A stretch of DNA of 64,000 nt from an uncultured Halobacteriales archaeon (GTDB lineage: Archaea > Thermoplasmatota > E2 > JACPAO01), in contig CAYOZB010000001.1 of NCBI GenBank assembly GCA_964408365.1, positions 2,157 to 66,156 of the forward strand, written 5' to 3'. The position numbers and the translations under genes were made by a program. Each line of letters opens with the position of its first letter. Position 1 is the stretch's first letter. Under the pieces are notes generated by a model, which saw only the letters and a list, made by a program, of their open reading frames with translations, ran no database searches and was not told where the DNA came from. Shown one piece after another: positions 10,468 to 50,290 of the stretch.

Positions 10468-11976
10468 ATGAGACGCGGCTTCTCCGTCCTTCTCATCCTC
10501 ATGTTCATGCCGTGGGCTGGCTGCCTTGAAAGCCTCGCTGACACGGGCGAGTGCACCGTACATCTCCCAGCTGTGACGGCAGGCGACACGTACCTCTACG
10601 AGGCAAATGGGTCCCTTGCACACATCTACACGACAGCTGGCGCCGTCACCCATTGGACCGCTGTAGACGATACTTGGACGGAGGGCAACCTTGCGTTCGG
10701 AGGCATCCTGACCGTCAACAAGGGAGCAACGCTGAAAATTCGGATCGCAGACCAGCCAATCCCGCGCCTCCAGTACCAAGGCCTGGTGCGGCCGGCCTAT
10801 CAAATTGCGTACGAAGTGAAAGACCCCGCGCACGAACCCGTTTTCCACTACGTGGACGAATGGATGGATGCCGAATCAGGGGACTTGGTGGCCGCCAGCT
10901 TGCGTGCCACATATGATTTTGGCGACGACCAAGACCATCTTATCCGCCTCATGCGGGACGGCCGCGCTCCATTATTCATTTCTGGCGCCTTGCCGTCGGA
11001 ACTAGAAGCGGGGCACCGAATTGGGATTAACTCGGCCCCGGAAGTTCGCGGCGGACCACGCGCTCGAGCCGAACGAATTGAAGGAGGAGCGGCTCTGGAC
11101 GGTAGCGTACAGCGCACGGAACTCATCCGCGGCGTGTGTCATGCATTCGTCGAGATCGAGTACAGCGAACTAAGAAACACGCGTTCTGAAATTCAGATAC
11201 AAATCCGTGCCACATACCGGGACGGGCGTCCCCTCCCTGTCGAATACACCGAACACTATCCGCCGTCCTTCGGGTATCTCGACATGAAGTTGGTCCTAGC
11301 GGAGTACAGGGGGGCCAATGGCGCGGCCCTGCCAGAATGGAACCCGCCTTCCCGACAAAATGGCTCCCTAAAGACACAGATCGCGCCCGATGGCTTCTTG
11401 CCTTACACGAAGAACATCTTCCCGACCACATTCGCGGAAGCGGAACAGGCAATCCGCGCGGACGAAGTCGCCGCGACATGGCTCAACGCAAGGGCCGATG
11501 CAACCTTGCTTGAGGTGAGGCACGTCATGGGTGACCCATCGACCGACGCCGTAGACCAGTGGGAGATAACATGGGCGGACAACGAAAAAGCGCTTCTCAC
11601 GGCCACCGCCACGAAGCGCCGCTCATTATTGCCTGATACACCCGTGACGAAACGCGAGGAAATTCAGGTCACGACCAAGCTGGGCGACAAAGCCGACGAC
11701 CTTCCTGGGCCGGTGACACCAAGGATCGCTCTTGATGACATGGACAAGTTGTCAAGGACGTTCTACAAAGAACCGTTGGAATTTCTCTCGTGTGACTTCT
11801 TCCGAAATGATTGCTGGTTTGGATCCCACAATGTTACGGGGTGGCCGAAGGCCGGGGAGACGGGCGGCGGCCTGCCGCAACCGGGCCTAATGATATTCCT
11901 TGAGGCCGGGTGGCTGTTCATGGAACAATCCTATGCGCAGCGCGCATTAGACGACGCGGCCGCCCCAGAGGCCTAG
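10468..11976 (+). CDS. Secreted lipoprotein, unknown function
   Basis: MRRGFSVLLILMFMPWAGC (lipobox-like AGC). 500 aa without recognisable catalytic motifs. Confidence 0.5.
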   Translation: MRRGFSVLLILMFMPWAGCLESLADTGECTVHLPAVTAGDTYLYEANGSLAHIYTTAGAVTHWTAVDDTWTEGNLAFGGILTVNKGATLKIRIADQPIPRLQYQGLVRPAYQIAYEVKDPAHEPVFHYVDEWMDAESGDLVAASLRATYDFGDDQDHLIRLMRDGRAPLFISGALPSELEAGHRIGINSAPEVRGGPRARAERIEGGAALDGSVQRTELIRGVCHAFVEIEYSELRNTRSEIQIQIRATYRDGRPLPVEYTEHYPPSFGYLDMKLVLAEYRGANGAALPEWNPPSRQNGSLKTQIAPDGFLPYTKNIFPTTFAEAEQAIRADEVAATWLNARADATLLEVRHVMGDPSTDAVDQWEITWADNEKALLTATATKRRSLLPDTPVTKREEIQVTTKLGDKADDLPGPVTPRIALDDMDKLSRTFYKEPLEFLSCDFFRNDCWFGSHNVTGWPKAGETGGGLPQPGLMIFLEAGWLFMEQSYAQRALDDAAAPEA

Positions 11977-12113
11977 AGGTGACCGTTCGGCTTTCGGCCC
12001 GATTGGCGCAAGCAACCGGACGAGCTCGGTTATCAGGACAAGCCACCGACGCACCGACCCACTTTCACCCATCCCCTCCCGTTCCCTAAGTACCATGAAG
12101 CCCGAATGCGTCG

Positions 12114-13094
12114 ATGTTGGCCGGAGGGACCCCAGCGCCAAGTCTCGAGGAAGCAGCGAACGCCATCCTCGAAGAAGTCCAGGGCACACTCGACCATCCC
12201 CTCGAATTCTTGCCGATCCAAGTCGCAAAGCACGGGCGACGTTGTGCTGCCGTCGACGGTGGCTCGACGGTCGTCCTCAACGCGCGCACCGCCGGCATGT
12301 ACGCCATCCGAGCGGGGTACGCGCTTCGCGAACCCGACGACCGCCACTTGCTCCGGATCTCCTCCAACACGTGGCGGACCGCCACGAAACGTTCCACCGG
12401 CCGACTCTGGACCGAACTCAAACGCCACTACGCGTGGGGCGTCGACGTGGAGGCTCCGAAAATCGACGCGGCGCGCCTCGTCCCGCAATTGGCGGAAGCA
12501 GAACGGGTGCTCGCCGAGTTCGACGCCTCTCGCCGCGCCCTCAAGGAACTCCGCTCCGGCGATCTTCTCCTCGTCGACGGATCGTTCGACGATGAAGAAC
12601 GGTTCGCTCCGCTTCGAGAGAACCTTCTCGAATGGGCCGAAGCCGGCGGCGTTGGCGTCATCGGCGTGTCCAAGGACACGAGCCTGTCCGTCGGGGGCAT
12701 CCTACCGTTCACGTTGGAACTCGAAGAGTTGAGCGCGTCGCGAAAAGTGACGGCCCCTTGGATGGTGGATGTCACCGCTGCGCTTGGTTACGGCGAACGG
12801 GGATTCCAAGTGTTCGGCATGCAATTCGACACGCGCTCCACGCCCTACCGGGTCGACGTGTCGGGGGTCGACGCGGCGGAGGCAGCCTCGTTCTTGCTGA
12901 GCCTCTGCAACGATCCGGCGTACGCGGGCTACCCCTACCCACTTGCGCGTGTGCACCAACGGGTGCATTACGAAAGCGGCGAATCGATGGACCTGCGACG
13001 CGAACTCGAAGGCATCGTTGCGCGACGACGAGGCCACCGGCTCAGTATGCGACTCTTTGGAAACGGACGGGACGTGCTGGAACTTGCCAACTGA
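12114..13094 (+). CDS. nurA: NurA 5'-3' nuclease
   Basis: CAAVDGGSTVV (the NurA IDGS-type motif), size about 325 aa, immediately upstream of HerA. Confidence 0.7.
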   Translation: MLAGGTPAPSLEEAANAILEEVQGTLDHPLEFLPIQVAKHGRRCAAVDGGSTVVLNARTAGMYAIRAGYALREPDDRHLLRISSNTWRTATKRSTGRLWTELKRHYAWGVDVEAPKIDAARLVPQLAEAERVLAEFDASRRALKELRSGDLLLVDGSFDDEERFAPLRENLLEWAEAGGVGVIGVSKDTSLSVGGILPFTLELEELSASRKVTAPWMVDVTAALGYGERGFQVFGMQFDTRSTPYRVDVSGVDAAEAASFLLSLCNDPAYAGYPYPLARVHQRVHYESGESMDLRRELEGIVARRRGHRLSMRLFGNGRDVLELAN

Positions 13095-39066: not shown

Positions 39067-39939
39067 CTAGGGTTCGAATGCTGCGGCTTGTTTGAGAACC
39101 TCGGCGCGCATTTTCTGCGGGCGGGCGTCCTTCGCCAAGCGCTTCTCCAGGTCCGTGAGGTTGTTCAGGAAGGAGAACCGTTTGGCTGCTTTGGCGCATT
39201 CGGGGTTCCAGTCCTTTTGCTGGTTCTTGCCGAGCAGGCGGTTGAGGTTCTTCCAATCCTTCAGCCCGGTGCCTAGTTTTTTGAGAATCAAGGGTGGATC
39301 CAACGACTGGCGGACGCTCCAGAGTTTGGCGGCGGCGAGGAACCGGGCCGGGTCGGCCTTGAAGGGCAGGGAAGCGTATTGGATGACATCGTAGTAGTCG
39401 CGATCGCTTGTCCGTTGCTGGAGGGCTCGGAGCTTTTCCGAAATGGCCTCCACCATCGGAAGGCTTGGCACGTCAACCGGTGTGAAAGGCAGCGATGGGA
39501 AGTAGGATTGTGGGATCTGGGGGGTGGGCCGGGGGTTGAGGAAGGGGGCTTCCCTGTAACTGACGTCGATCGAGAAGTGGTCTTCCGCGTGCTCGTGTGT
39601 GTAGTGAACGTCGCAAGCCCAACTGCCTTCGTCCGTCGTGTGGGCGTTGTCGATCGTAAACGTGATCCCGTCGAACGGCTGCGCAAACGCTTTTCGAAAC
39701 AAGGCCTCGGGATCTTTTTGGATCCCGTTCTGAGTGAAATCGAGGTCTTCGCTGATCCGGCCGAGTCCACCCACAATCATTTTCCGAAGGTACGTTCCGC
39801 CTTTGAACACCAAGAGACGCAGCAATCCGTGCTGGTGTAAGCGCTGAAGGGCATAGGTCAGGACGACGTCTTGTTGGGCGACCTCGACGTCTGTCTGGGC
39901 CTGGTCGGCAAACTTGTTGAGAACCGGGTACGGAATCAA
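39067..39939 (-). CDS. abiEii: AbiEii-family nucleotidyltransferase toxin (DUF1814)
   Basis: VFKGGTYLRK ... GRISEDLDFT (GG-x-A/Y-L and R-x-S-E-D-x-D-F motifs of the AbiEii/AbiGii NTase). Overlaps the upstream gene by 4 nt. Confidence 0.7.
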   Translation of the reverse strand: MIPYPVLNKFADQAQTDVEVAQQDVVLTYALQRLHQHGLLRLLVFKGGTYLRKMIVGGLGRISEDLDFTQNGIQKDPEALFRKAFAQPFDGITFTIDNAHTTDEGSWACDVHYTHEHAEDHFSIDVSYREAPFLNPRPTPQIPQSYFPSLPFTPVDVPSLPMVEAISEKLRALQQRTSDRDYYDVIQYASLPFKADPARFLAAAKLWSVRQSLDPPLILKKLGTGLKDWKNLNRLLGKNQQKDWNPECAKAAKRFSFLNNLTDLEKRLAKDARPQKMRAEVLKQAAAFEP

Positions 39940-40754
39940 CCAATACTCACTTCGCTGAGGATTTCACCCATCGGTTGATTCACTTGCACGTGCCACTGCG
40001 AATCCGTCGGGCCGCCTCGTGGCGAGGAAGGATCAATCTGGACGTAGCCTGCGCCGACACAAGCCGCCAACGTCTTCCGGGCGTTGGTCGGGATGGCAAT
40101 GTCCTTTCTCACGTGATCCAGGAGCCAACCCAAGCGTTGCACCGTACTGTGGCGTCCGAAATGAGTCGCGGCATCCGCTAAACGCTTCCAATTCATTCGG
40201 GGCTTTGCCGCTGCGACGATCTGCGCGGAATTGGAAACGCCTCCCACCAGGTCGGGGCGGTCGACGCATTCCAGGACCGTCGTTTCTTGGTTTGAAAGCC
40301 GAATCTCGACTCCTCGGCGTTCCTGCGTTTCCGCATCCTGGCCCTTGCGTGGCGAAATCACGAACCTGATCTGGACTGGCAAATCCTTGGGGACGCGTTT
40401 GCGCTTCGGGGTCGTGATCACGTACTCTTGGAAACGTTGCTTTAGCAGTCCATGGAGGTTTGCCGCCGTGGAATGGCTGAAGAAGTATGGGTGAACGAGG
40501 CTGCTTCCAATTCGAAACGGGTCGCGATCCGGAATCGCGTCGGGGCCATTCACGCTTGGGTTGACGAGGTACCGGCCCCGGCCGACTCGTTGCAACCAAT
40601 GTTTTTCGTTCAGCCTGTGGGCAAGCTTTCGTGCATGGGTCCGGCTGGCCGAAGTCCAAAGCTGAATCTGATCCAACGTCACCTCGCGCTGGGCCTCTGA
40701 CTCCGCCGTCAGAATGACCTGGGATTCCAAGGGCGACAGACTACGCACACTCAT
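39936..40754 (-). CDS. abiEi: AbiEi-family antitoxin / transcriptional regulator
   Basis: N-terminal wHTH with WLQRVGRGRYLV (the G-R-G-R-Y motif of AbiEi), plus a C-terminal domain. Forms an operon with abiEii. Confidence 0.7.
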   Translation of the reverse strand: MSVRSLSPLESQVILTAESEAQREVTLDQIQLWTSASRTHARKLAHRLNEKHWLQRVGRGRYLVNPSVNGPDAIPDRDPFRIGSSLVHPYFFSHSTAANLHGLLKQRFQEYVITTPKRKRVPKDLPVQIRFVISPRKGQDAETQERRGVEIRLSNQETTVLECVDRPDLVGGVSNSAQIVAAAKPRMNWKRLADAATHFGRHSTVQRLGWLLDHVRKDIAIPTNARKTLAACVGAGYVQIDPSSPRGGPTDSQWHVQVNQPMGEILSEVSIG

Positions 40755-40925: not shown

Positions 40926-42215
40926 CTAGGCCGGGTTTTTCCGCGCCACGATTGGCAACGCCCGCACGACGTCGACTTCCATCTGTGCCGCATCGGTCTC
41001 CTCGATCCGGAGTTGCTTGGCGAACGCGTCGAGCATCCGACGTTCCTTGATCGTGATCCGACCGTCGGACCAGGCTTCTGCCAACGCGTCACGGTACACG
41101 TCCCGCTTCCGTCCGCCTTCGTAGGAACGTGTTCGCTCCACGGTCGGCAGCAACCGTCCAGCGAACCGTTCCGCCCAGCGTTGCAACGGGTTGAGCGCGA
41201 ACAAGAGAAGGCCGCACGCGATGCCTCCGATGAGGTAGTCTTGGCCGAATTCGTCCTCGAAGAACGCTTCCACCACCTGTGACACGAGGATGAAGACGAA
41301 CGTGAACGAGGCGACGACTTCCCCCCGCGACACGGTGACTTTCAGTCGCAGGTCGATGTCAAACAGGCGGGCGCGGGCGAGGGCATAGGTGAGGACGATG
41401 CCGAAAACGAGGGCGTTGACGGCCGGGAAGTCGACGCGAAAGACGTCGAGCACGCGCGCCAGAAACACCAATCCAAGCAAGGCTCCTACGAAGGTCGACT
41501 TGCCGACGCCGCTTTGTTGTTGTCGGGACGCTGCGCGGATCGCCAACACGGCGAGGAACAAGGCGGCCACTCGTGCGGCCAAGTACAGGGTTTCGACGAT
41601 GGCGTCGGCGACCGCGGAAGCGGATCCGACGTCGGTGAGGTAGTCGATGAGGTTCGCCCAATACGATGGGGAGAGCATCGTGACGGCCTGGCTCAACGGA
41701 TAGACGAGGAACGCCGTCGCGACGAGGATCATGCTCCACGCGCGGGGATCGCGGGGTTGTCGCAACGGGGTTTGGAGGGAACGGAACGCTCCCCACGCCA
41801 GGAGTGGCGTCCACGCGACGGAGATGAGTGTGAACATGGGGCTCTCGGCAGCGCTGCGGTCGCCTGCGTACCACACGCTGAGCGCGCCCGCCCCGACCAG
41901 ACAGGCCCAGCCGATCCAGTTCGCGCGACGAGCACGTTTCGGGTAAAGGCAGAGGAACCAGACCAACGCTGCGGACGCCCAAACGGCAAGATGCGTGTAC
42001 AAGCGCAGGTAATAATCGTCCCGGGGCGGGAGCGTGGAGAAGAGCAATCCCTCGACGAGGTCCCAGATCGCGTTGAGGGTCACAAGGATGGCGAAGCTGC
42101 GGTGCCGCGCGTTGCCGGGCGCCAGCGAGAAGACCCACACGGCCGCGGCGAGTTGGAGCAGGGCGCCCACGGCGTAGGTGAGCACCTGTGGGTCCGTGAA
42201 CTCGGGAGGAACCAC
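40926..42215 (-). CDS. Polytopic membrane protein, paralog of the sensor domain of the Ser/Thr kinase at 45868..47790 (no kinase domain)
   Basis: Shares ...RLFDIDLRLKVTV... (vs kinase ...QLFDFDLKLKAAV...) and a C-terminal ...RDVYRDALAEAWSDGRITIKERRMLDAFAKQL... (vs ...VEVYREALRDALGPDGKMDSKQSSALREFRNSL...). About 8 TM. Confidence 0.45.
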   Translation of the reverse strand: MVPPEFTDPQVLTYAVGALLQLAAAVWVFSLAPGNARHRSFAILVTLNAIWDLVEGLLFSTLPPRDDYYLRLYTHLAVWASAALVWFLCLYPKRARRANWIGWACLVGAGALSVWYAGDRSAAESPMFTLISVAWTPLLAWGAFRSLQTPLRQPRDPRAWSMILVATAFLVYPLSQAVTMLSPSYWANLIDYLTDVGSASAVADAIVETLYLAARVAALFLAVLAIRAASRQQQSGVGKSTFVGALLGLVFLARVLDVFRVDFPAVNALVFGIVLTYALARARLFDIDLRLKVTVSRGEVVASFTFVFILVSQVVEAFFEDEFGQDYLIGGIACGLLLFALNPLQRWAERFAGRLLPTVERTRSYEGGRKRDVYRDALAEAWSDGRITIKERRMLDAFAKQLRIEETDAAQMEVDVVRALPIVARKNPA

Positions 42216-43020: not shown

Positions 43021-43074
43021 GTCGTTCCGGCAAATGCCCGCGCCGCGTAAGGGTTCGCCTTGGAGTTGGAAAGG

Positions 43075-43163
43075 CGTGGGGGCGGGATTCGAACCCGCGA
43101 GGACCGCCTTCGGGATCCATTGGTCCTCAGCCAATCGCCTTTTCCAGGCTGGGCTACCCCCAC
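43075..43163 (-). tRNA. tRNA-Leu (anticodon GAG), type II with long variable arm; no encoded CCA; possible 1-nt defect at the T-stem/acceptor junction
   Basis: Reverse complement reads GTGGGGG-TA-GCC(C)-AGCCTGGAAAA-GGC-G-ATTGG-CTGAGGA-CCAAT-[20-nt variable arm]-GCGGG-TTCGAAT-CCCG-CCCCCAC-G. Anticodon loop CTGAGGA gives GAG. The 3-bp D-stem and long variable arm are Leu-like. One C fewer than tRNA-2 between T-stem and acceptor. Confidence 0.6.
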
Positions 43164-43215
43164 GTTCCGAACGATTTTCTTGCCCCACCACCATGTACTC
43201 GTTGGACTCCTGTCC

Positions 43216-43286
43216 GACTGTGTCCAGCCCTCAGCAGCTGGGCCAGCTCGGGGGTCTTCGGACCCCCGAAGCCTTTCCTTTTTTGG
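43216..43286. repeat. Copy 1 of a ~70-nt repeat: ...GACTGTGTCCAGCCCTCAGCAGCTGGGCCAGCTCGGGGGTCTTCGGACCCCCGAAGCCTTTCCTTTTTTGG (7-bp GC hairpin with UUCG loop followed by a T-tract on the plus strand)
   Basis: Near-identical copies at 49905-49972 and 50139-50210. Each lies about 45-55 nt 5' (in the minus-strand sense) of a tRNA-Leu-like sequence. Confidence 0.5.
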
Positions 43287-43384
43287 AAACCATGTTTGCA
43301 TGACCTCTGGCCGGGGTGGACAGGCGACGACAGCGGCGTCAGTCAGTTGGCTGGACGCCCTTATGCATGGCCGCGTCCGGTGGG

Positions 43385-45049
43385 ATGGCTATGAACCAAC
43401 TCGTTCGCGGCCCTGGAATGCTCTTTGTCATGCTGATCCTCGCAGGCTGTGCCGGCGCGGGGTCGAACCCTTCGCAGACCGTCGCTCCGGCCGTCTTGGG
43501 GCCCGGCGACGCCCCCGGCCCAGCCCAGACCGCCCAGGCACCGGTCACGGGTCCCTTGCTCACGGTCCCCGTGTCGGGCACATTCACGAGCGACGGCTTC
43601 ATGCCGCCGGACCAGGTGATCTGCTTCGACCCCTCGAACCCTATCGCCCCTCGCCCGGGCGCTTGTGAAGCGTACTTCACGATGTTCCTCAACATGAGTG
43701 GCACCCTCACAGGCCGGATCACCGACATCTTCCACTTCCACGCGCTCGAGAACGGATCGATCGACGCGGAGGGCACACGCGTGTTCACGGGCGCCGTGGA
43801 CAGGTGCGGATCCGGCACCATGTCCCTGCGCCTGGACGGCATCGCTCCGGCGGATCCGAACCCGGAAATGCCCGGGTACACCCACATCAAGGAACCCATG
43901 CAGACGCTCTTGCAAGGATCCACGACGACGGGCCTTGCGGGCGTCATCGACGCGCGGATCCGGTTCGAGTTCAACACGACGAACGGGCCCGGCGGGGTCT
44001 CAAGCATCCCGGACGGCACCGTGACGGGATGGATCCAGTGCCGATCGGCCGGAGACGCCCAAACGTTGTCCAGCCACGACAAGACAACAGCAATCGCGAT
44101 CGCCGGACATTTCACGATGGACGGCGCACAGACGGAAAGCCAAGCCGCCTGCGACGTCGAGACACGGCGTTGCGAGCTCTACCCGGACCTGTTCCTCGAC
44201 CTCACGGGACCGATCGAGGGCCGCATGGTCGACCATGGGCACTTCCACTACCACGACGGGTCGACCGACGGGTCCGTCGACGGATACGGTGAACGCATCT
44301 TCACCGGCACCATCGCCGGTTGCGGTTCGGGTACCCTCACGCTCCTCGTCGACGGCGCGGCCCCGCCCCAGCCCAACCCGCCCAACGCGTTCCGATACCA
44401 CGAGCCATCGATGAAACTCGTCCCGGGGTCAACGACGACCGGACTTTCGGGCGTGATGGACGCCGACCTCGTGTTGGAATGGAACATCACGGTCCAAGGC
44501 ACCATCCGCGACGGCACGGTCACCGGAACGGTCTGGTGCAAGGAGTCCCACGGGAAAGGGACCATCGACCGAGACGAGGGAGCACGCGCGCAGTCGGTCA
44601 CGATGCGGACGATCACCCCCGGCATCCTCCTTCCCAAGGAAGGGAACTGCGCGGTCGATCCTGCCAAGCCCGATGAGTGCGACGTCTACGCGAGCCAATT
44701 CCTCTTCGCAGATGCGCCCTGGGACGCGCTGATCATCGACAACGCCCACCTTCACACCCACCGGAACGGATCGGTGTGGGCGACCGCGGAGCGGCCCTTC
44801 TTCGGCGAAGTGCCTGGGTGCGGCTCCGGCATGATGACGTTCCGCCTCGGCGGCTGGCTCGGCAGCGTGGACCCCGTCCTGGACCAGCCAGGCTACTTCC
44901 ACCTTCGCGAGCCCGCCATGCGGCTCGTCCCGGGATCGACGTCGACCGGCCTTGCGGGCCTCGTCGACGCCGAACTCACCGGCGACTTCGTCTTCACCGG
45001 CCCCGGCGCCGGCACCGACACGTTCACGGGCACCGTCTGGTGCCGTTGA
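43385..45049 (+). CDS. Secreted lipoprotein composed of tandem ~130-aa repeats of an unrecognised domain (H-x-H ... CGSG ... GSTTTGL)
   Basis: MAMNQLVRGPGMLFVMLILAGCAG (L-A-G-C lipobox). Three to four repeats such as FHFHALENGS...RCGSGTMSL...GSTTTGLAGVIDA; HFHYHDGS...GCGSGTLTL...GSTTTGLSGVMDA; HLHTHRNGS...GCGSGMMTF...GSTSTGLAGLVDA. Confidence 0.55.
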   Translation: MAMNQLVRGPGMLFVMLILAGCAGAGSNPSQTVAPAVLGPGDAPGPAQTAQAPVTGPLLTVPVSGTFTSDGFMPPDQVICFDPSNPIAPRPGACEAYFTMFLNMSGTLTGRITDIFHFHALENGSIDAEGTRVFTGAVDRCGSGTMSLRLDGIAPADPNPEMPGYTHIKEPMQTLLQGSTTTGLAGVIDARIRFEFNTTNGPGGVSSIPDGTVTGWIQCRSAGDAQTLSSHDKTTAIAIAGHFTMDGAQTESQAACDVETRRCELYPDLFLDLTGPIEGRMVDHGHFHYHDGSTDGSVDGYGERIFTGTIAGCGSGTLTLLVDGAAPPQPNPPNAFRYHEPSMKLVPGSTTTGLSGVMDADLVLEWNITVQGTIRDGTVTGTVWCKESHGKGTIDRDEGARAQSVTMRTITPGILLPKEGNCAVDPAKPDECDVYASQFLFADAPWDALIIDNAHLHTHRNGSVWATAERPFFGEVPGCGSGMMTFRLGGWLGSVDPVLDQPGYFHLREPAMRLVPGSTSTGLAGLVDAELTGDFVFTGPGAGTDTFTGTVWCR

Positions 45050-45062
45050 GGAGCTTCTGTCC

Positions 45063-45863
45063 ATGCTGAACTTCAGTCGTGGCGTACGCATGGCGGCCCA
45101 AGCCGTGATGAACGGGAAACCACCTGTTGCACCCATGCAACGACAAGGGGCGCCGGATGTGGATTATGCGAGCCTGGCGGACTTTCTGAGCGCCCTTGCG
45201 TACCCGACGCGGCTGGAACTCCTTCGCGTCCTTCGATTCCCGCACATCGCAAGCGAGATCCGGATTGCGCCTCTTCGCGTCGAACGCGGCGAGAACCCCA
45301 GGCGGACCGCCAGCAAGCAGACGATCCAGGCGCACCTCGACAAACTCGTGGATGCTGGCCTGGTGCGGGTAGAATCGTCGGGCGAAGAGGGGAGAAAGCG
45401 ACGCGTGTACAGCGTCAACAGCCAGAAAGTGTACGCGGTCACCGAGGATCTGAGAAAGGTGTCCACCATCTACGCCGGTCGGGGTGCGGTCGGCGAGGCG
45501 ACAGGCACACTGGTCCAGTCGCCGCCTACGAACGATCCACTCCCGGGCCCCCGGCTCGTGCTCGTGCATGGACTCTACGAAGGAAAATCGTTCCCACTCG
45601 ACGAGCGGATCGCGCCTGACGGCGCGTGGGTCATCGGCCGGCGACGCGGGCTGGCCATCTCCCTCGACTACGACCCATACGTTTCTCTCGAGAACAGTGT
45701 CGTCCGTCGCCAAGGCAACCAACTCACGGTCGAAGACCTGCCGGAGAGCAAGAACGGCGTCACGGTGAATTGGGAACCCGTTGCCAAGGGCGCCCGTCGC
45801 GTGCTGAAATCCGCCGATGTGGTGGGCGTGGGGCGTTCGTTGTTGGTCTTCTCGCTGGGATGA
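45063..45863 (+). CDS. ArsR-type winged-helix + C-terminal FHA-domain protein (phospho-threonine-reading transcription regulator)
   Basis: N-terminus LADFLSALAYPTRLELLRVL (ArsR HTH). C-terminus PRLVLVHGLYEGKSFPLDERIAPDGAWVIGRRRG...VSLENSVVRRQGNQLTVEDLPESKNGVTVN (the G-R ... S-x-x-H/N ... N-G-T-x-V-N pattern of an FHA domain). Confidence 0.6.
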   Translation: MLNFSRGVRMAAQAVMNGKPPVAPMQRQGAPDVDYASLADFLSALAYPTRLELLRVLRFPHIASEIRIAPLRVERGENPRRTASKQTIQAHLDKLVDAGLVRVESSGEEGRKRRVYSVNSQKVYAVTEDLRKVSTIYAGRGAVGEATGTLVQSPPTNDPLPGPRLVLVHGLYEGKSFPLDERIAPDGAWVIGRRRGLAISLDYDPYVSLENSVVRRQGNQLTVEDLPESKNGVTVNWEPVAKGARRVLKSADVVGVGRSLLVFSLG

Positions 45864-45867
45864 GACC

Positions 45868-47790
45868 CTAGTGCAACGCGGCCGTCAACGCGCGACGCAT
45901 CTCGGCGGCGCTCGAAAACCGTTTTTCGGGCGCGAGGGCGCGCGCGAACCAGGCCCGGAGCTTCGACGGCTTCACGTTCCCCTTGAAGTCCCGCAGGGCG
46001 CCGACGCGCATCCTGAGCTCGATGGCGCTCTCGTCCGGCAGGCGCTCGATCACGGGGCGTCCCGTGCGGGCCTCGTACATGGTGGCTGCGGCGCTGTAGA
46101 GATCGCTCAACACGGTGAGCCGCTTGCCGCGCGCCTGCTCGGGAGACATGTATTGGGCCGTGCCAGACCCGGAACCCCCGATGGTGGTCTCGAACCCGGC
46201 GAGCTGTGCGATTCCGAAGTCGGCCAGCTTGGCGCGGCCATCGCGCGTCAGCAGAATGTTGCTGGGTTTCACGTCGCGGTGAACGGCCCCTGCGGCGTGC
46301 ACGGCTTCGAGGGCGGCGAGCACGTCATCGGCGATGCGGGCGAAGGCCGAGTCCGAGAGTGGACCGCTCGTTCGAAGCCTCTCGCGGAGTGATCCGCCGT
46401 CCACGTACTCCATCACGAGCACGGTCTGGTCCCGCACGTTCTCGACGTCGTAGATCCTCACGACATTGGGATGTTCGATGGCGGCGGCGGTCCGCGCTTC
46501 GCGGATGACGGCCGCCTGATCGTCGCTCGGGATGGTCTTGAGAACGACGCGACGGTTCATGCGCACGTCGCTTGCGAGGAACGCCTTTCCGCTCCCACCT
46601 GCGCCGAGCTCGCGTTCGACCCGATACTTTCCAAGAATCGTGGCTCCCGGGACGACTTGGGCGGCGCGGTTTGCGAACGGACTGGCCTCGAGCGCGGCGA
46701 GCATCACGTCGTGGTCGCGCTGTGTGAGACCGAGGCTGTTCCTGAACTCACGAAGCGCGGAGGATTGTTTGGAATCCATCTTGCCGTCCGGTCCGAGCGC
46801 GTCGCGCAGTGCTTCTCGGTAGACCTCGACCTTCTTGCGCATGAGGTAGTCCGGTGTCTTGGAGACGCCGGGAAAGAGGCGGTCGGCAAGGGCGTTCGAG
46901 GCTCGTCGAATGGGGGCGATCGCGATCAGCAGTGCGCCGACGGCCGCGCCGCCCACGAGGATCCCGTACTGTTGTAGATACTGCTGAGCGATGGCACTTC
47001 CAAGCACGAAGGCGCCGACGAAGATGGCGACGAGCGCGCTCCGGGCGACGGCCGCCTTGAGCTTGAGGTCAAAGTCGAACAGTTGGTATCGAAGCAAGGC
47101 GGTGGTGACGAGGGCGCCGAACGCCAGCTGGAGGACGACGTTGGCGATGTCGTGCCCAATCAAGTCGTTCGGTTTGAGAAATATGTACGAGAGCGCCGCA
47201 GCGACGCCGACGTCTTGCGTGGTGAAGGCCAGAAGGTAGGCTTTCGCGCGCCGACGAGGCATCGTCCCTGGGACTGTGCGTCGGAAGGCGGAGATGGCGG
47301 CGACCAGCCCAAAAACCACCATGAACAGGTAGACGAAGAGACCCGTCGTGAGAAGGGGACCGGAATCCCAGGCCCAACCGTGCTCCGGCACCAAGCGTCC
47401 GGGGCCGGTCATGACGGTCTGTGGGAAAAGAAAGGAAATGATGCCGGCCGTGGCCGCCACCAGGATGATCGCGACGCGGAACCAAGCGCGGCGCAACAGA
47501 TTCGTCAACGGTGTCTCGAGGGCGTAGCCGAGGAAGATGGGGTAAGAGGCGAGGCCGCCCCACGCCAAGGCCCATAGGGTCCGGGTGGCATTGTAATCGA
47601 GTGTGCGGTCCGGGAAGAGAGTGCCGAACACGCCCGGGGGCACGGAGATTGCCTTGAACACGATCAAGGCCGCGAGCGCGCGGTTGGTGCCGCGGCGTGG
47701 TCCGGCCGCGAGGATGATGCCGGCGAGGACGAACTCGATCACCATCATGACGATGGTGACGATGGCGACCGTCATTGCGGCGCTGACCAT
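45868..47790 (-). CDS. Membrane-integrated Hanks-type Ser/Thr protein kinase (N-terminal ~8-TM sensor domain, C-terminal kinase)
   Basis: ELGAGGSGKAFLA (G-loop), VVLK (Lys), HRDVKPSNILL (catalytic loop), DFGIA, SPEQ (APE-like). N-terminal 330 aa polytopic. Confidence 0.7.
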   Translation of the reverse strand: MVSAAMTVAIVTIVMMVIEFVLAGIILAAGPRRGTNRALAALIVFKAISVPPGVFGTLFPDRTLDYNATRTLWALAWGGLASYPIFLGYALETPLTNLLRRAWFRVAIILVAATAGIISFLFPQTVMTGPGRLVPEHGWAWDSGPLLTTGLFVYLFMVVFGLVAAISAFRRTVPGTMPRRRAKAYLLAFTTQDVGVAAALSYIFLKPNDLIGHDIANVVLQLAFGALVTTALLRYQLFDFDLKLKAAVARSALVAIFVGAFVLGSAIAQQYLQQYGILVGGAAVGALLIAIAPIRRASNALADRLFPGVSKTPDYLMRKKVEVYREALRDALGPDGKMDSKQSSALREFRNSLGLTQRDHDVMLAALEASPFANRAAQVVPGATILGKYRVERELGAGGSGKAFLASDVRMNRRVVLKTIPSDDQAAVIREARTAAAIEHPNVVRIYDVENVRDQTVLVMEYVDGGSLRERLRTSGPLSDSAFARIADDVLAALEAVHAAGAVHRDVKPSNILLTRDGRAKLADFGIAQLAGFETTIGGSGSGTAQYMSPEQARGKRLTVLSDLYSAAATMYEARTGRPVIERLPDESAIELRMRVGALRDFKGNVKPSKLRAWFARALAPEKRFSSAAEMRRALTAALH

Positions 47791-47982
47791 TGCTGACCAC
47801 CCACACCGGTCTCGGCCGGTTGTCGACCGACGGGACCCGGTTTAGCGACGCTGCTGGGAAGATATAAGGCCTGGCGGGCCAGCCCCGCTATTGCATGCGA
47901 TCTCTCGTGGCGGTTGCCGGGCTGGGATTGCCAGCGAGTTGGCTGGCAAGCCTATTGGGAGGGACGCCCACTGGGTCGTGAC

Positions 47983-49539
47983 ATGAACCGAGCGTGCCTC
48001 CCGTCGATTTGCCTTCTCCTGCTGGCCGCGTTGGCCGGGTGCGCGTCGACCCAGCCCGAATCGCCAACCATGTCCGGCGATGGCCTGGGTGCCGGCACGC
48101 CTCCCGACGGGCCGGGAGTCGTGTTCTTGAAGCCGCCGACCGAGAGGCCTCTAAAGTTCCACTTCGACCTCCATCTCACCGCGGCGCCTTTTCCGCTTGA
48201 TTGCGGCCCGTCCACTCCGGGCACCTGCCGGGAGTACCTGACCGGCTCCGCCAACCTCAGTGGGGACGTCGTCGGGAACGCCGTGGACTCAGGATTCCTC
48301 TATTGGGAATCGGGATCCCGGTTCAACGCCCGGGAATGGTTTCGCGTGACCGCCGACGTGGCCGGGTGCGGCTCGGGGACTTTCACGCTCGCCAACATCG
48401 GCACTGGCGCGCTCGAGCCCGACGCCGGCGGCGTCATCCACATCCTGGCGGACCTCCACCTTGTCGCCGGCTCGACGTCCACGGGCCTCGTCGGCCTCGT
48501 CGCGATGAACGTCACCGGGGACTGGCGTTTGAACGGCCAGTTCGGCTCCGGCGACCTGGCCGGGACGATCTCGTGCGCCGAAGTCGTTAACGACGAAAAG
48601 GCGAAGGCCGTCGGGCCCGGGGAGCAGGCTTTCAAGTTCCACTTCGACGCGCACCTAACGTTCGCCCCGTACCCTGTCGATTGCGCCGCCGCCAAAACCT
48701 GGGTGTGCGACGAGTACTGGACCGGCAACGTGAATCTCACGGGCGGCCTCGTGGGGACCGCGTCCCTCTCGGGCCACGTCCACCACAAAGGCGGCGCCGT
48801 TGTCTGGGCGCAGGAATACTACCGGTTCAGTGGCACCGTCGCCGGTTGCGGTTCCGGCTCTTTCAGCATGGTCCTCAACGGGACCGTGACCGCGGAGGCC
48901 AACCCGGCGGGTATCAGCCACTTGATGGCACGCGCCGACCTCGTGCCCGGCTCCACATCGACGGGCCTTGCGGGGCTCATGCGCCTGCACGCGCTGGGCG
49001 ACTGGCGGCAGAGCGGCCAGTTCGGGTCCGGGGACCTTGAGGGCACCGTTTCCTGCTCCGACGTGAAGGCCCCCGGCAAGGACGCGGCGCATGCTGCCCG
49101 CGAGCGCCCTCTCAAATTCCACTTCGACGCCCACATCACCCTCGCGCCGGATCCCGTCGACTGCAACGCTGCGCGCGCCTGGGTCTGCGACGAATATTGG
49201 ACGGGCAACGCTGAGATGAGCGGGGGACTCGTCGGCAACGCCATCCTCCAAGGCCATGTCCACTACGACGCCGGCACCCGCGCCTGGGCCCGCGAATCCT
49301 ACGAGTTCAGCGGCCAGGTGCTGGACTGCGGCTCCGGCGCGTTCACCCTTACAGTACCTGGAGCCGGCACCGTCGAGCCCAACACAGGCGGCGTCCTCCA
49401 CCTCCAGGCCGCGGTCGACCTTGTGTCCGGCTCGACCTCCACCGGCCTCTCGAGCCTCGCAAGCATCCACGGGAAGGCAGACATTCGTCTCACGGGACAA
49501 TTCGGTTCCGGCGACGTCGAAGTCACCGTCGCCTGTTAG
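47983..49539 (+). CDS. Secreted lipoprotein, paralog of 43385..45049, with three ~150-aa repeats (KFHFDxHLTxAPxPxDC ... AGCGSG ... GSTSTGL)
   Basis: MNRACLPSICLLLLAALAGCAS lipobox. Repeats at about residues 70, 230 and 380, each with FKFHFD.HLT.AP.P.DC, CGSG(T/S)F and GSTSTGL(V/A/S). Confidence 0.55.
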   Translation: MNRACLPSICLLLLAALAGCASTQPESPTMSGDGLGAGTPPDGPGVVFLKPPTERPLKFHFDLHLTAAPFPLDCGPSTPGTCREYLTGSANLSGDVVGNAVDSGFLYWESGSRFNAREWFRVTADVAGCGSGTFTLANIGTGALEPDAGGVIHILADLHLVAGSTSTGLVGLVAMNVTGDWRLNGQFGSGDLAGTISCAEVVNDEKAKAVGPGEQAFKFHFDAHLTFAPYPVDCAAAKTWVCDEYWTGNVNLTGGLVGTASLSGHVHHKGGAVVWAQEYYRFSGTVAGCGSGSFSMVLNGTVTAEANPAGISHLMARADLVPGSTSTGLAGLMRLHALGDWRQSGQFGSGDLEGTVSCSDVKAPGKDAAHAARERPLKFHFDAHITLAPDPVDCNAARAWVCDEYWTGNAEMSGGLVGNAILQGHVHYDAGTRAWARESYEFSGQVLDCGSGAFTLTVPGAGTVEPNTGGVLHLQAAVDLVSGSTSTGLSSLASIHGKADIRLTGQFGSGDVEVTVAC

Positions 49540-49813
49540 CAACGGGTGCCTTGCTTGGCCGGTGGGGCAAGGGACCGCCATCTCGAATCGTGCTTCCCGC
49601 GCCCTTGGCTGTTAGGCATGTGGCTGGCGCCCCTGAACCGCCACAGAGAACGCGCCGAAACGGCTAGGATTGCACTTTGTGGGAACCAACGCCGAAACTT
49701 GTTGATGGGTTTTACCGGGCGCCGGCGCGTCGCTGCGTGCCGCGCCGCGACGACAAGCGGCGCCGCGGTCAGGTCACCGACTGCGGCTCCGCGTCCATCA
49801 CCTTCTACCCTTG

Positions 49814-49852
49814 TTCTCAGCCAATCACCGTTTCCGGGCTGGGCTACCCCAT
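49814..49852 (-). pseudogene. Truncated tRNA-Leu 5'-half copy (acceptor 5' strand, D-arm and anticodon 5' stem, then divergence)
   Basis: Reverse complement TGGGGTAGCCCAGCCCGGAAACGGTGATTGGCTGAGAAC is about 90% identical to positions 3-41 of the tRNA at 43075-43163 but lacks the 3' half. Confidence 0.4.
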
Positions 49853-49904
49853 AGAATTTTCTTTTCCTTGGGCAGCACTATCATGGCCGGACGCCTGAGG
49901 TCCA

Positions 49905-49972
49905 CTTTGTTCAGCCGTCTCAGCGGCTGGGCCACTCGGGGGTCTTCGGACCCCCGAACCCTCCTTTTCTGC
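49905..49972. repeat. Copy 2 of the ~70-nt hairpin + T-tract repeat
   Basis: ...TTCAGCCGTCTCAGCGGCTGGGCCACTCGGGGGTCTTCGGACCCCCGAACCCTCCTTTTCTG. Sits between tRNA-Leu copy 2 and the tRNA fragment. Confidence 0.5.
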
Positions 49973-49996
49973 CTCCCCTTCCACGATGTGGAGAGG

Positions 49997-50084
49997 CGTG
50001 GGGGGCGGGATTTGAACCCGCGAGGACTGCCACATCCAACTTGGTCCTCAGCCAAGCGCCGTAACCGGTCTGGGCCACCCCCAC
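49997..50084 (-). tRNA. tRNA-Leu (anticodon GAG), type II, canonical stems, no encoded CCA
   Basis: Reverse complement GTGGGGG-TG-GCC-C-AGACCGGTTAC-GGC-G-CTTGG-CTGAGGA-CCAAG-[18-nt variable arm]-GCGGG-TTCAAAT-CCCGC-CCCCCAC-G. All stems pair. Differs from copy 1 in D-loop, anticodon stem, variable arm and T-loop. Confidence 0.7.
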
Positions 50085-50138
50085 ATCGAAATTGTTATTG
50101 CCTTTCCTCACGTAGTGGTCGTGAGGACTGCCAGATCC

Positions 50139-50210
50139 GACTGTGTTCAGCCGTCTCAGCGGCTGGGCCGCTCGGGGGTCGTCGGACCCCCGAACCCTTT
50201 CCTTTTCTGG
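50139..50210. repeat. Copy 3 of the ~70-nt hairpin + T-tract repeat
   Basis: GACTGTGTTCAGCCGTCTCAGCGGCTGGGCCGCTCGGGGGTCGTCGGACCCCCGAACCCTTTCCTTTTCTGG. It is preceded (50120-50135) by a 16-nt copy of the tRNA-2 variable-arm segment GAGGACTGCCAGATCC. Confidence 0.5.
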
Positions 50211-50290
50211 TTCCCACGTTTGCGTGACGCTGTGAGCAAAGCCTAAACCGCGCTGCGCCTTCGGCCGCGCCCACCGAGGCGACGCGTCCC

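Follow-up and report, generated by a model that had tools for sequence, protein, structure and literature searches.

The closest described counterpart of the locus analyzed here is the PknH/EmbR pair of Mycobacterium tuberculosis, in which a membrane Hanks-type Ser/Thr kinase acts on a neighboring transcription factor that combines a winged helix with an FHA domain; intramolecular inhibition by the FHA domain is treated in the same work (PMC4601284). In Archaea, transcriptional control of a surface structure by Hanks kinases and FHA proteins is known for the ArnA/ArnB/ArnC-D system of the Sulfolobales (ST0829/ST1565; PMC5007285, PMC6509490, PMC10470591), and a survey of genomes of cultured Thermoplasmatales turned up no two-component genes (PMC5007285). 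The present locus lies in a 64-kb stretch of DNA (hereafter, the window) from an uncultured archaeon labeled Halobacteriales and placed by GTDB in the Thermoplasmatota. It consists of four genes, encoding lipoprotein A (+ strand), a winged helix-turn-helix (wHTH)-FHA regulator (+), a polytopic membrane kinase (-), and lipoprotein B (+), the same order that was given in an earlier note on this DNA, made from its sequence alone. To our knowledge, archaeal signal transduction outside the Sulfolobales and haloarchaea is almost unstudied. Judging from the sequence comparisons described below, the four genes form a genuine signaling cassette of Archaea that is conserved and, it appears, has not been described before; both an operator and a regulon can be identified for it. 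The parts of the cassette are as follows.

43339-43354: operator A palindrome, TCAGTCAGTTGGCTGG, with a TATA-like CCTTAT at ~43359-43364
43385 (or 43391)-45049, + strand: lipoprotein A (open reading frame [ORF] listing)
45063-45863, + strand: wHTH-FHA regulator, 266 residues (ORF listing, Pfam)
45868-47790, - strand: membrane Hanks-type Ser/Thr kinase, 640 residues (ORF listing, Pkinase profile)
47931-47946: operator B palindrome, CCAGCGAGTTGGCTGG, with a TATA-like CCTATT at 47951-47956
47983-49539, + strand: lipoprotein B, divergent from the kinase gene (ORF listing)

The stop codon of lipoprotein A is separated from the start of the regulator gene by 13 nt, so that the two genes are probably cotranscribed; the regulator and kinase genes are arranged tail-to-tail, with 4 nt between them.

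By analogy, the cluster would function like PknH/EmbR without belonging to that family; its FHA domain is GarA-like. As in PknH/EmbR (PDB 2FEZ and 2FF4), the gene of a membrane Hanks kinase stands beside that of a regulator with a winged helix and a C-terminal FHA domain, and it is proposed that here, too, Thr phosphorylation alters promoter binding at cell envelope genes. The components themselves differ. EmbR carries an OmpR/SARP-type winged helix and a BTAD/TPR region; in the window regulator, the winged helix is ArsR-like, the linker is short and disordered and bears a conserved threonine, and a BTAD, for which 266 residues leave no room, is absent. The regulator gave no zinc-finger, BTAD, or Trans_reg_C match in Pfam, and it is not a member of the EmbR/SARP family (OmpR-type winged helix, BTAD, and FHA). 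PknH has a folded extracellular sensor domain, in contrast to the polytopic membrane module of the window kinase, and the window system is archaeal, with promoters of the transcription factor B recognition element (BRE)/TATA type. In a fold search, the FHA domain was closest to GarA/OdhI, DgcB, and EmbR; identity to GarA/OdhI and DgcB is 28 to 36%, with a template modeling (TM) score of ~0.9 to GarA. In GarA and OdhI, a Hanks kinase phosphorylates a Thr in a flexible tail, which is then recognized by an FHA domain, either that of the same protein or that of a partner, as is proposed here for T147 of the regulator; unlike the regulator, these proteins lack a DNA-binding domain, regulate enzymes, and carry an N-terminal ETTS threonine motif.

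The earlier note had named the Arn system as the nearest analogy, a place that belongs rather to PknH/EmbR. ArnA is a zinc-finger FHA protein with a vWA partner, ArnB; the window system has neither, no vWA gene being present in the window cluster or the related loci, and it is not an ArnA/ArnB module. A polytopic membrane kinase whose gene lies tail-to-tail with that of the regulator has no match among the Arn kinases, and the lineages are different as well (Thermoproteota for Arn and Thermoplasmatota for the window). A literature search returned no description of this wHTH-FHA/kinase architecture in Thermoplasmatota, an absence that is no proof of novelty. To that extent, the suggestion that the architecture is undescribed holds, but the regulator is not a one-off: 312 homologs are detectable, many of them 50 to 75% identical over the full length, from metagenome-assembled genomes (MAGs) labeled Thermoplasmatota or mislabeled Halobacteriales. 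Databases already label these relatives “FHA domain-containing protein” or “ArsR family regulator.”

Evidence for a regulatory connection between the signaling genes and the lipoprotein genes comes from a 16-bp palindrome, CCAGCCA-NN-TGGCTGG, that was found by reading the intergenic regions before the lipoprotein genes. When at most one mismatch is allowed, the palindrome occurs twice in the 64 kb of the window, against 0.12 expected, once directly upstream of each lipoprotein gene. The nonredundant orthologous loci contain 19 palindromes in 142 kb, compared to 0.5 in Markov simulations (38-fold enrichment), and the other loci contain 6 in 655 kb. In 15 cases, nearly all of them lipobox proteins, 34 to 36 nt separate the palindrome from the start codon, and a TATA-like box follows 5 to 6 nt past the palindrome (in relatives, GTTAT, ATTAAG, TTTAAC, or CTTATA). 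Operator B lies in the intergenic region between the divergent kinase and lipoprotein B genes, with 36 nt between its end and the start codon of lipoprotein B; the fixed spacing in relatives points to the ATG at 43391 (MNQLV...), rather than to 43385, as the start of lipoprotein A. In sequence terms, a palindrome at about -37 to -52 that abuts the BRE is the geometry of leaderless archaeal promoters. A hairpin with a 7-bp stem and a loop of 2 nt is not possible in RNA, so that the palindrome is a protein-binding DNA site. Archaeal activators generally sit just upstream of BRE/TATA, and the position of the operator therefore favors activation. The idea that the kinase and the wHTH-FHA protein control the repeat lipoproteins, put forward in the earlier note, gains direct sequence support from the conserved operator.

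The palindrome is present where the kinase and regulator genes adjoin the lipoprotein genes, in front of nearly every one of the latter. All five fetched loci among the six closest regulator homologs carry the operator; conversely, it is absent from the triple-module lipoprotein loci that lack an adjoining kinase/regulator pair (L056, L058, and L059). In relatives, it also precedes other genes. For example, a single palindrome in the related locus L005 (11696-11711, equivalent to L001 9693-9708) lies midway between divergent genes for a multicopper oxidase and a CarboxypepD_reg lipoprotein, each of which starts 35 to 36 nt from the shared palindrome and has its own TATA-like box. Another palindrome precedes the first of two tandem ~190-residue lipoprotein genes in L001 (14593-15763) whose products share a conserved HCHGH motif and have no Pfam match; L005 likewise carries this HCHGH family. 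A third example is L007, where a PP2C-type phosphatase gene (11728-12441) is divergent from the kinase gene and has a palindrome 26 nt upstream. No PP2C gene was noticed in the window cluster, the rest of the window not having been searched for one.

To place the cluster among its relatives, GTDB species representatives were scanned for regulator homologs, which yielded 51 loci. Each locus was annotated with four profiles, one apiece for the regulator, the kinase domain, the membrane module of the kinase, and the module of the lipoproteins. At 31 of the 51 loci, a kinase gene adjoins the regulator gene (within 300 nt); at 44, one lies within 5 kb. A single MAG can encode up to seven or more regulator copies. 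The co-occurrence of the four gene types, which the earlier note had singled out for checking, was found in six other genomes or metagenomes, with differing surrounding genes. Lipoprotein genes with DUF3224-like modules, described below, stand beside every regulator ortholog of at least 65% identity (L001/L005, L002, L003/L004, L006, L007, and L012) and at none of the 47 loci of more distant paralogs; in the window, L003, and L005, the kinase and lipoprotein genes are divergently paired. Many MAGs of this Thermoplasmatota group come from soil, sand, or saline samples.

The regulator comprises three parts.

45165-45416, + strand: ArsR-like winged helix (Pfam HTH_20, AlphaFold2 model)
45501-45503, + strand: codon of the conserved T147, within a disordered linker (alignment, AlphaFold2 model)
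45552-45854, + strand: FHA domain (Pfam, AlphaFold2 model, fold search)

The FHA assignment passed the profile check (PF00498, 28.3 bits against a cutoff of 20.7). The winged-helix matches are significant yet fall below the curated cutoffs (HTH_20, 23.5 against 27; HTH_5, 15.1 against 22; NF033788, 28.2 against 55), so the protein lies outside ArsR/SmtB as Pfam and NCBIfam delimit it. Given that the AlphaFold2 model contains a winged helix with a long C-terminal helix, the domain is ArsR-like in fold only: of the ArsR-type DNA-binding domain proposed earlier, the fold stands and the family does not. No Cys or His cluster is conserved in the alignment of the closest homologs, in which the metal sites alpha3N and alpha5 were not specifically examined. 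The model (predicted local distance difference test [pLDDT] score of 83) consists of a winged helix (residues 35 to 118), a long helix (120 to 136), and an FHA sandwich (164 to 264), with linker residues 142 to 153 predicted to be disordered (pLDDT < 50). The six closest aligned homologs (64 to 74% identity) have practically the same recognition helix, KQTIQAH(L/I)DKLVD. From the conserved residues and the fold, the FHA domain is predicted to bind phosphothreonine: G192-R193, S208, and N231, the positions responsible for such binding, are invariant in 27 of 27 homologs. In the same set, T147 is invariant and followed at +3 by L, V, or I in every sequence, within the motif (D/E)-A-T-G-T-(L/V/I). 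Across the wider family, down to 28% identity, T147 is kept in 49 of 56 members despite the variable linker around it, and the +3 residue is L, V, I, or M in 42 of 56. Self-recognition switches of the GarA/OdhI type show just this arrangement, a lone conserved Thr with a hydrophobic residue at +3 and disordered sequence around it, next to an FHA domain; T147 is likely a phospho-switch site.

The kinase likewise divides into three parts.

46906-47790, - strand: polytopic membrane module, residues 1 to 295 (hydropathy scan)
46651-46905, - strand: juxtamembrane linker
45871-46650, - strand: kinase domain (Pkinase profile)

The identification as a Hanks-type Ser/Thr kinase is borne out by the Pkinase profile (Pfam, E = 6.6e-43) and by a complete set of catalytic motifs (G-loop GAGGSG, VVLK, HRD, DFG, and SPE), from which the enzyme looks active. 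The activation loop contains a TT pair (“FETTIGG”). The first 295 residues contain 7 to 9 hydrophobic segments in a hydropathy scan, so that the N terminus previously described as an 8-TM (transmembrane) sensor is indeed polytopic, the exact count being approximate. The loops between these segments are short, leaving almost no extracellular loops.

In both lipoproteins, a hydrophobic stretch is followed by an LAGC lipobox (a Sec-type signal in A), as had been noted; both match the pattern [LVI][ASTVI][GAS]C, from which lipidation is predicted, and nearly all family members at the related loci carry L[AS]GC. A and B are paralogous (BLASTP, E = 4e-46). The repeats were expected to number three to four per protein, with a length of 130 to 150 residues. 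Each protein has exactly three modules of ~145 to 170 residues, with a period of 166 to 172 residues in A and exactly 160 in B.

43556-44041, 44081-44539, and 44576-45046, + strand: modules of lipoprotein A
48145-48576, 48625-49056, and 49105-49536, + strand: modules of lipoprotein B

In the alignment of the six modules, CGSG and GSTxTGL are invariant, as are four cysteines per module; CGSG and GST[ST]TGL each occur three times per lipoprotein. Of the signature motifs proposed earlier, these two are upheld, whereas H-x-H, which lies on a strand, is missing from one of the six modules and FHFD is restricted to lipoprotein B.

The module had not been placed in any family, and direct searches alone would leave it unplaced. 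Against Pfam and NCBIfam, the lipoproteins gave nothing save a spurious subthreshold match to DUF6897; neither matched PF11528 at E ≤ 0.1 in the Pfam scan, and both remained below its gathering score. A word-indexed search with lipoprotein B recovered only lipoprotein B itself, and the six-module profile on its own matched no PDB sequence. The same profile, run as the hidden Markov model search that the earlier note had called for, retrieved 103 proteins at E ≤ 1e-3 from 1.84 billion representatives. This family includes ~12 triple-module proteins (504 to 570 residues), some double-module proteins, and many single-domain proteins of ~190 residues. Among 66 single-domain members, 39 match Pfam DUF3224 (PF11528) at E ≤ 0.01 (best, 6.2e-13), and the 66-member family profile matches the DUF3224 structure 2Q03 (E = 2.3e-4), with the signature motifs of the module aligned to FTGSLGD-KKGSF and SATGDFVHLVG. 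A structure model of the module, built from six sequences only, has eight strands in an AOC-like beta-barrel, the fold of 2Q03 and 2OOJ, which, by fold matches, is common also to dirigent proteins, AOC, PodA, and Diels-Alderases. By profile and model, the module is thus a divergent DUF3224/AOC-barrel-like domain, from a superfamily without assigned function. Structures of DUF3224 proteins have been available since 2007, with no function assigned; the family is not mentioned in the searchable literature, an absence that is no proof of its being undescribed. The solved proteins (2Q03 and 2OOJ) are bacterial, single-domain, and devoid of the four module cysteines, whereas the window proteins are secreted with a lipobox, consist of three tandem modules, and have four conserved Cys per module and a frequent H-x-H. 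The probable ligand of the lipoprotein barrels is a small molecule, hydrophobic or aromatic.

From the genes, domains, conserved synteny, operator with its fixed spacing, and conserved threonine observed here, we infer the binder of the operator and the phosphorylated residue, as well as the direction in which expression is regulated, the signal at the input, and the ligand of the barrels. The account favored, with moderate confidence, is a one-step Ser/Thr phosphorelay that runs from the kinase through the wHTH-FHA regulator and the operator to a regulon of surface lipoproteins. The polytopic membrane kinase would sense a signal in or at the membrane and phosphorylate the neighboring regulator, most likely at T147 of the disordered linker. 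Phosphorylated T147 would then be bound by the FHA domain of the regulator itself, either intramolecularly or across a dimer, and this binding would alter the occupancy of the 16-bp palindrome by the winged-helix dimer. The position of the operator, upstream of the BRE/TATA of leaderless promoters, would suit an activator. The regulon in the window would comprise the lipoprotein A/regulator operon and lipoprotein B; the palindrome before that operon implies that the regulator is autoregulated. The outputs would be membrane-anchored proteins with three DUF3224/AOC-like barrels each, predicted to bear disulfides.

Several points weigh against this account. Its support is comparative genomics, with all related sequences coming from uncultured MAGs; the assignment of the regulator to the palindrome is made from sequence, and a different factor could bind there. 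The operator position is the sole guide to whether the regulator would activate or repress. The canonical FHA His is replaced by Asn in 23 of the 27 homologs, and the AlphaFold2 model leaves the T147 linker undocked from the FHA domain, as expected for an unphosphorylated chain yet lending no support. No palindrome stands in front of the regulator genes of L006, L007, and L012, so autoregulation is not universal. Furthermore, the three triple-module lipoprotein genes at L056, L058, and L059 are not linked to a kinase/regulator pair, which makes the link frequent rather than obligatory.

Part of the same evidence also admits other readings. The FHA domain is needed for the kinase-substrate interaction in PknH/EmbR (PMC4601284), EmbR is a fold match across both domains of the regulator, and the kinase activation loop has its TT pair. 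On the EmbR pattern, the FHA domain would bind phosphothreonine on the autophosphorylated kinase, in the activation loop or the juxtamembrane linker, and recruit the regulator to the membrane to be phosphorylated or sequestered; T147 would be structural or secondary, and the operator and regulon would be unchanged. Docking of this kind is possible, if rather doubtful, in that it leaves unexplained why 49 of 56 family members keep a lone Thr with a hydrophobic +3 residue in a linker that is otherwise variable and disordered; docking and self-recognition are not mutually exclusive. The lipoproteins might instead act at the input, their barrels capturing an extracellular small molecule and presenting it to the kinase membrane module, with the operator forming a feedback loop. 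The short loops that join the kinase membrane segments, the divergent kinase/lipoprotein gene pairs of the window, L003, and L005, and a barrel fold shared with small-molecule binders and enzymes (dirigent proteins, AOC, PodA, and Diels-Alderases) are all compatible with such a role, which we nevertheless consider unlikely: contact between kinase and lipoprotein is purely conjectural, and paralogous kinase/regulator pairs exist without such lipoproteins. Moreover, the operator also precedes the genes of the unrelated L005 lipoproteins (multicopper oxidase, CarboxypepD_reg, and the HCHGH family), and an output regulon therefore fits better than a cosensor role.

The remaining alternatives dispense with the connection itself. 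The palindrome might belong to an unlinked factor for secreted proteins, the kinase/regulator pair controlling something else. Some of the unlinked triple-module genes adjoin a small TrmB/MarR-type regulator instead of the pair, and the cluster sits in a variable region with an AbiE toxin-antitoxin pair and duplicated tRNAs. Such a coincidence is nonetheless quite improbable in view of the 38-fold enrichment of the palindrome in orthologous loci, its presence where the pair is adjacent and absence where it is not, and synteny that is kept in six other genomes despite differing surroundings. Finally, the cluster could be seen as antiphage defense carried by an integrated, tRNA-bracketed element with a PD-T4-6/MADS-like kinase: the kinase domain strongly matches the PD-T4-6, mad6, and PglW models, the regulator wHTH matches that of Csa3 in a defense model scan, AbiEi/AbiEii is next door, and tRNA-Leu is duplicated. 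These matches, including those from PADLOC, are confined to the generic kinase and wHTH domains, the segment contains no integrase, and the tRNA bracket is missing from all relatives; the genes conserved beside the system encode lipoproteins and have one promoter operator in common, and the architecture differs from that of defense kinases, all of which makes this reading barely credible. We know of no defense system whose partners are lipoprotein genes sharing a promoter operator.

If the phosphorelay reading is adopted, the locus provides a complete writable model, with a sensor kinase, a predicted phosphorylation site, a 16-bp operator of fixed geometry, and targets, to which the relative L007 adds a cognate PP2C phosphatase gene. 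The model concerns archaeal signaling without two-component systems and is directly testable. DUF3224 gains its first regulatory and cellular context, that of secreted tandem barrels, predicted to bear disulfides, on an archaeal surface. More speculatively, the multicopper oxidase in the regulon of a close relative hints at extracellular chemistry of the phenolic or quinone type, which may be likened to that of plant laccase and dirigent proteins. A broader reading joins these strands: an expanded set of paired membrane kinases and wHTH-FHA regulators would be the group's main transmembrane route to transcription, here with a dirigent-like regulon. As a whole, this is speculative and unlikely to hold in full. 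Within it, genomes may encode up to seven or more kinase/regulator pairs, the linker Thr of each regulator may be read by its own FHA domain, and dirigent-like (AOC-barrel) lipoproteins may make up the surface regulon under the window pair. Were the joint reading true, the kinase/wHTH-FHA pairs would be a Ser/Thr functional analog of two-component systems.

The surroundings of the cluster include the following features.

39067-39939 and 39936-40754, - strand: AbiEii toxin and AbiEi antitoxin, a type IV toxin-antitoxin pair
40926-42215, - strand: kinase-less membrane protein, 429 residues (BLASTP against the kinase)
43073-43164, - strand: tRNA-Leu(GAG) copy 1, left bracket (tRNA scans)
49995-50084, - strand: tRNA-Leu(GAG) copy 2, right bracket (tRNA scans)
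43213-43304, 49904-49975, and 50136-50228: conserved blocks beside the tRNA-Leu copies

The AbiEii/AbiEi pair lies a short way upstream of the four-gene cluster. The 429-residue protein is polytopic and matches the last membrane segments and the juxtamembrane linker of the kinase (38% identity over 141 residues, E = 2e-23), with no kinase domain. Standalone counterparts of ~380 residues are present in other metagenomes; the protein may be an accessory or decoy sensor, and its membership of the system is uncertain.

Two tRNA-Leu(GAG) genes do bracket the cluster, as the earlier description of a tRNA-bracketed island implied, but the bracket is absent from the loci of all relatives checked and is therefore specific to the window genome rather than a feature of the system. 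A tRNA-bracketed mobile island as a property of the system was thus rejected, the relatives having no bracket and the segment no integrase; both tRNA-Leu(GAG) genes are mere context, outside the signaling system. A tRNA-like sequence was also seen by eye, without a tRNA scan, at L059 (7164-7460), from another metagenome, where an unlinked triple-module gene lies just downstream of it; this gene and lipoprotein A of the window are both near a tRNA or tRNA-like sequence, perhaps by coincidence. A third, partial tRNA-Leu unit in the window (49810-49962), composed of the 5' half of the tRNA and the upstream block, adjoins the second full copy and points to a tandem duplication with decay rather than to the simple doubling of an att site. 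The upstream block itself, ~70 to 90 nt directly 5' of each tRNA-Leu(GAG) copy on the - strand, is 84 to 95% conserved, more so than the spacer that adjoins the tRNA. It has no Rfam match and contains two hairpins, GGGGGTC-CGAAG-GACCCCC and CAGCCGC...GGCTG. On the + strand, the block resembles a hairpin followed by a T-run.

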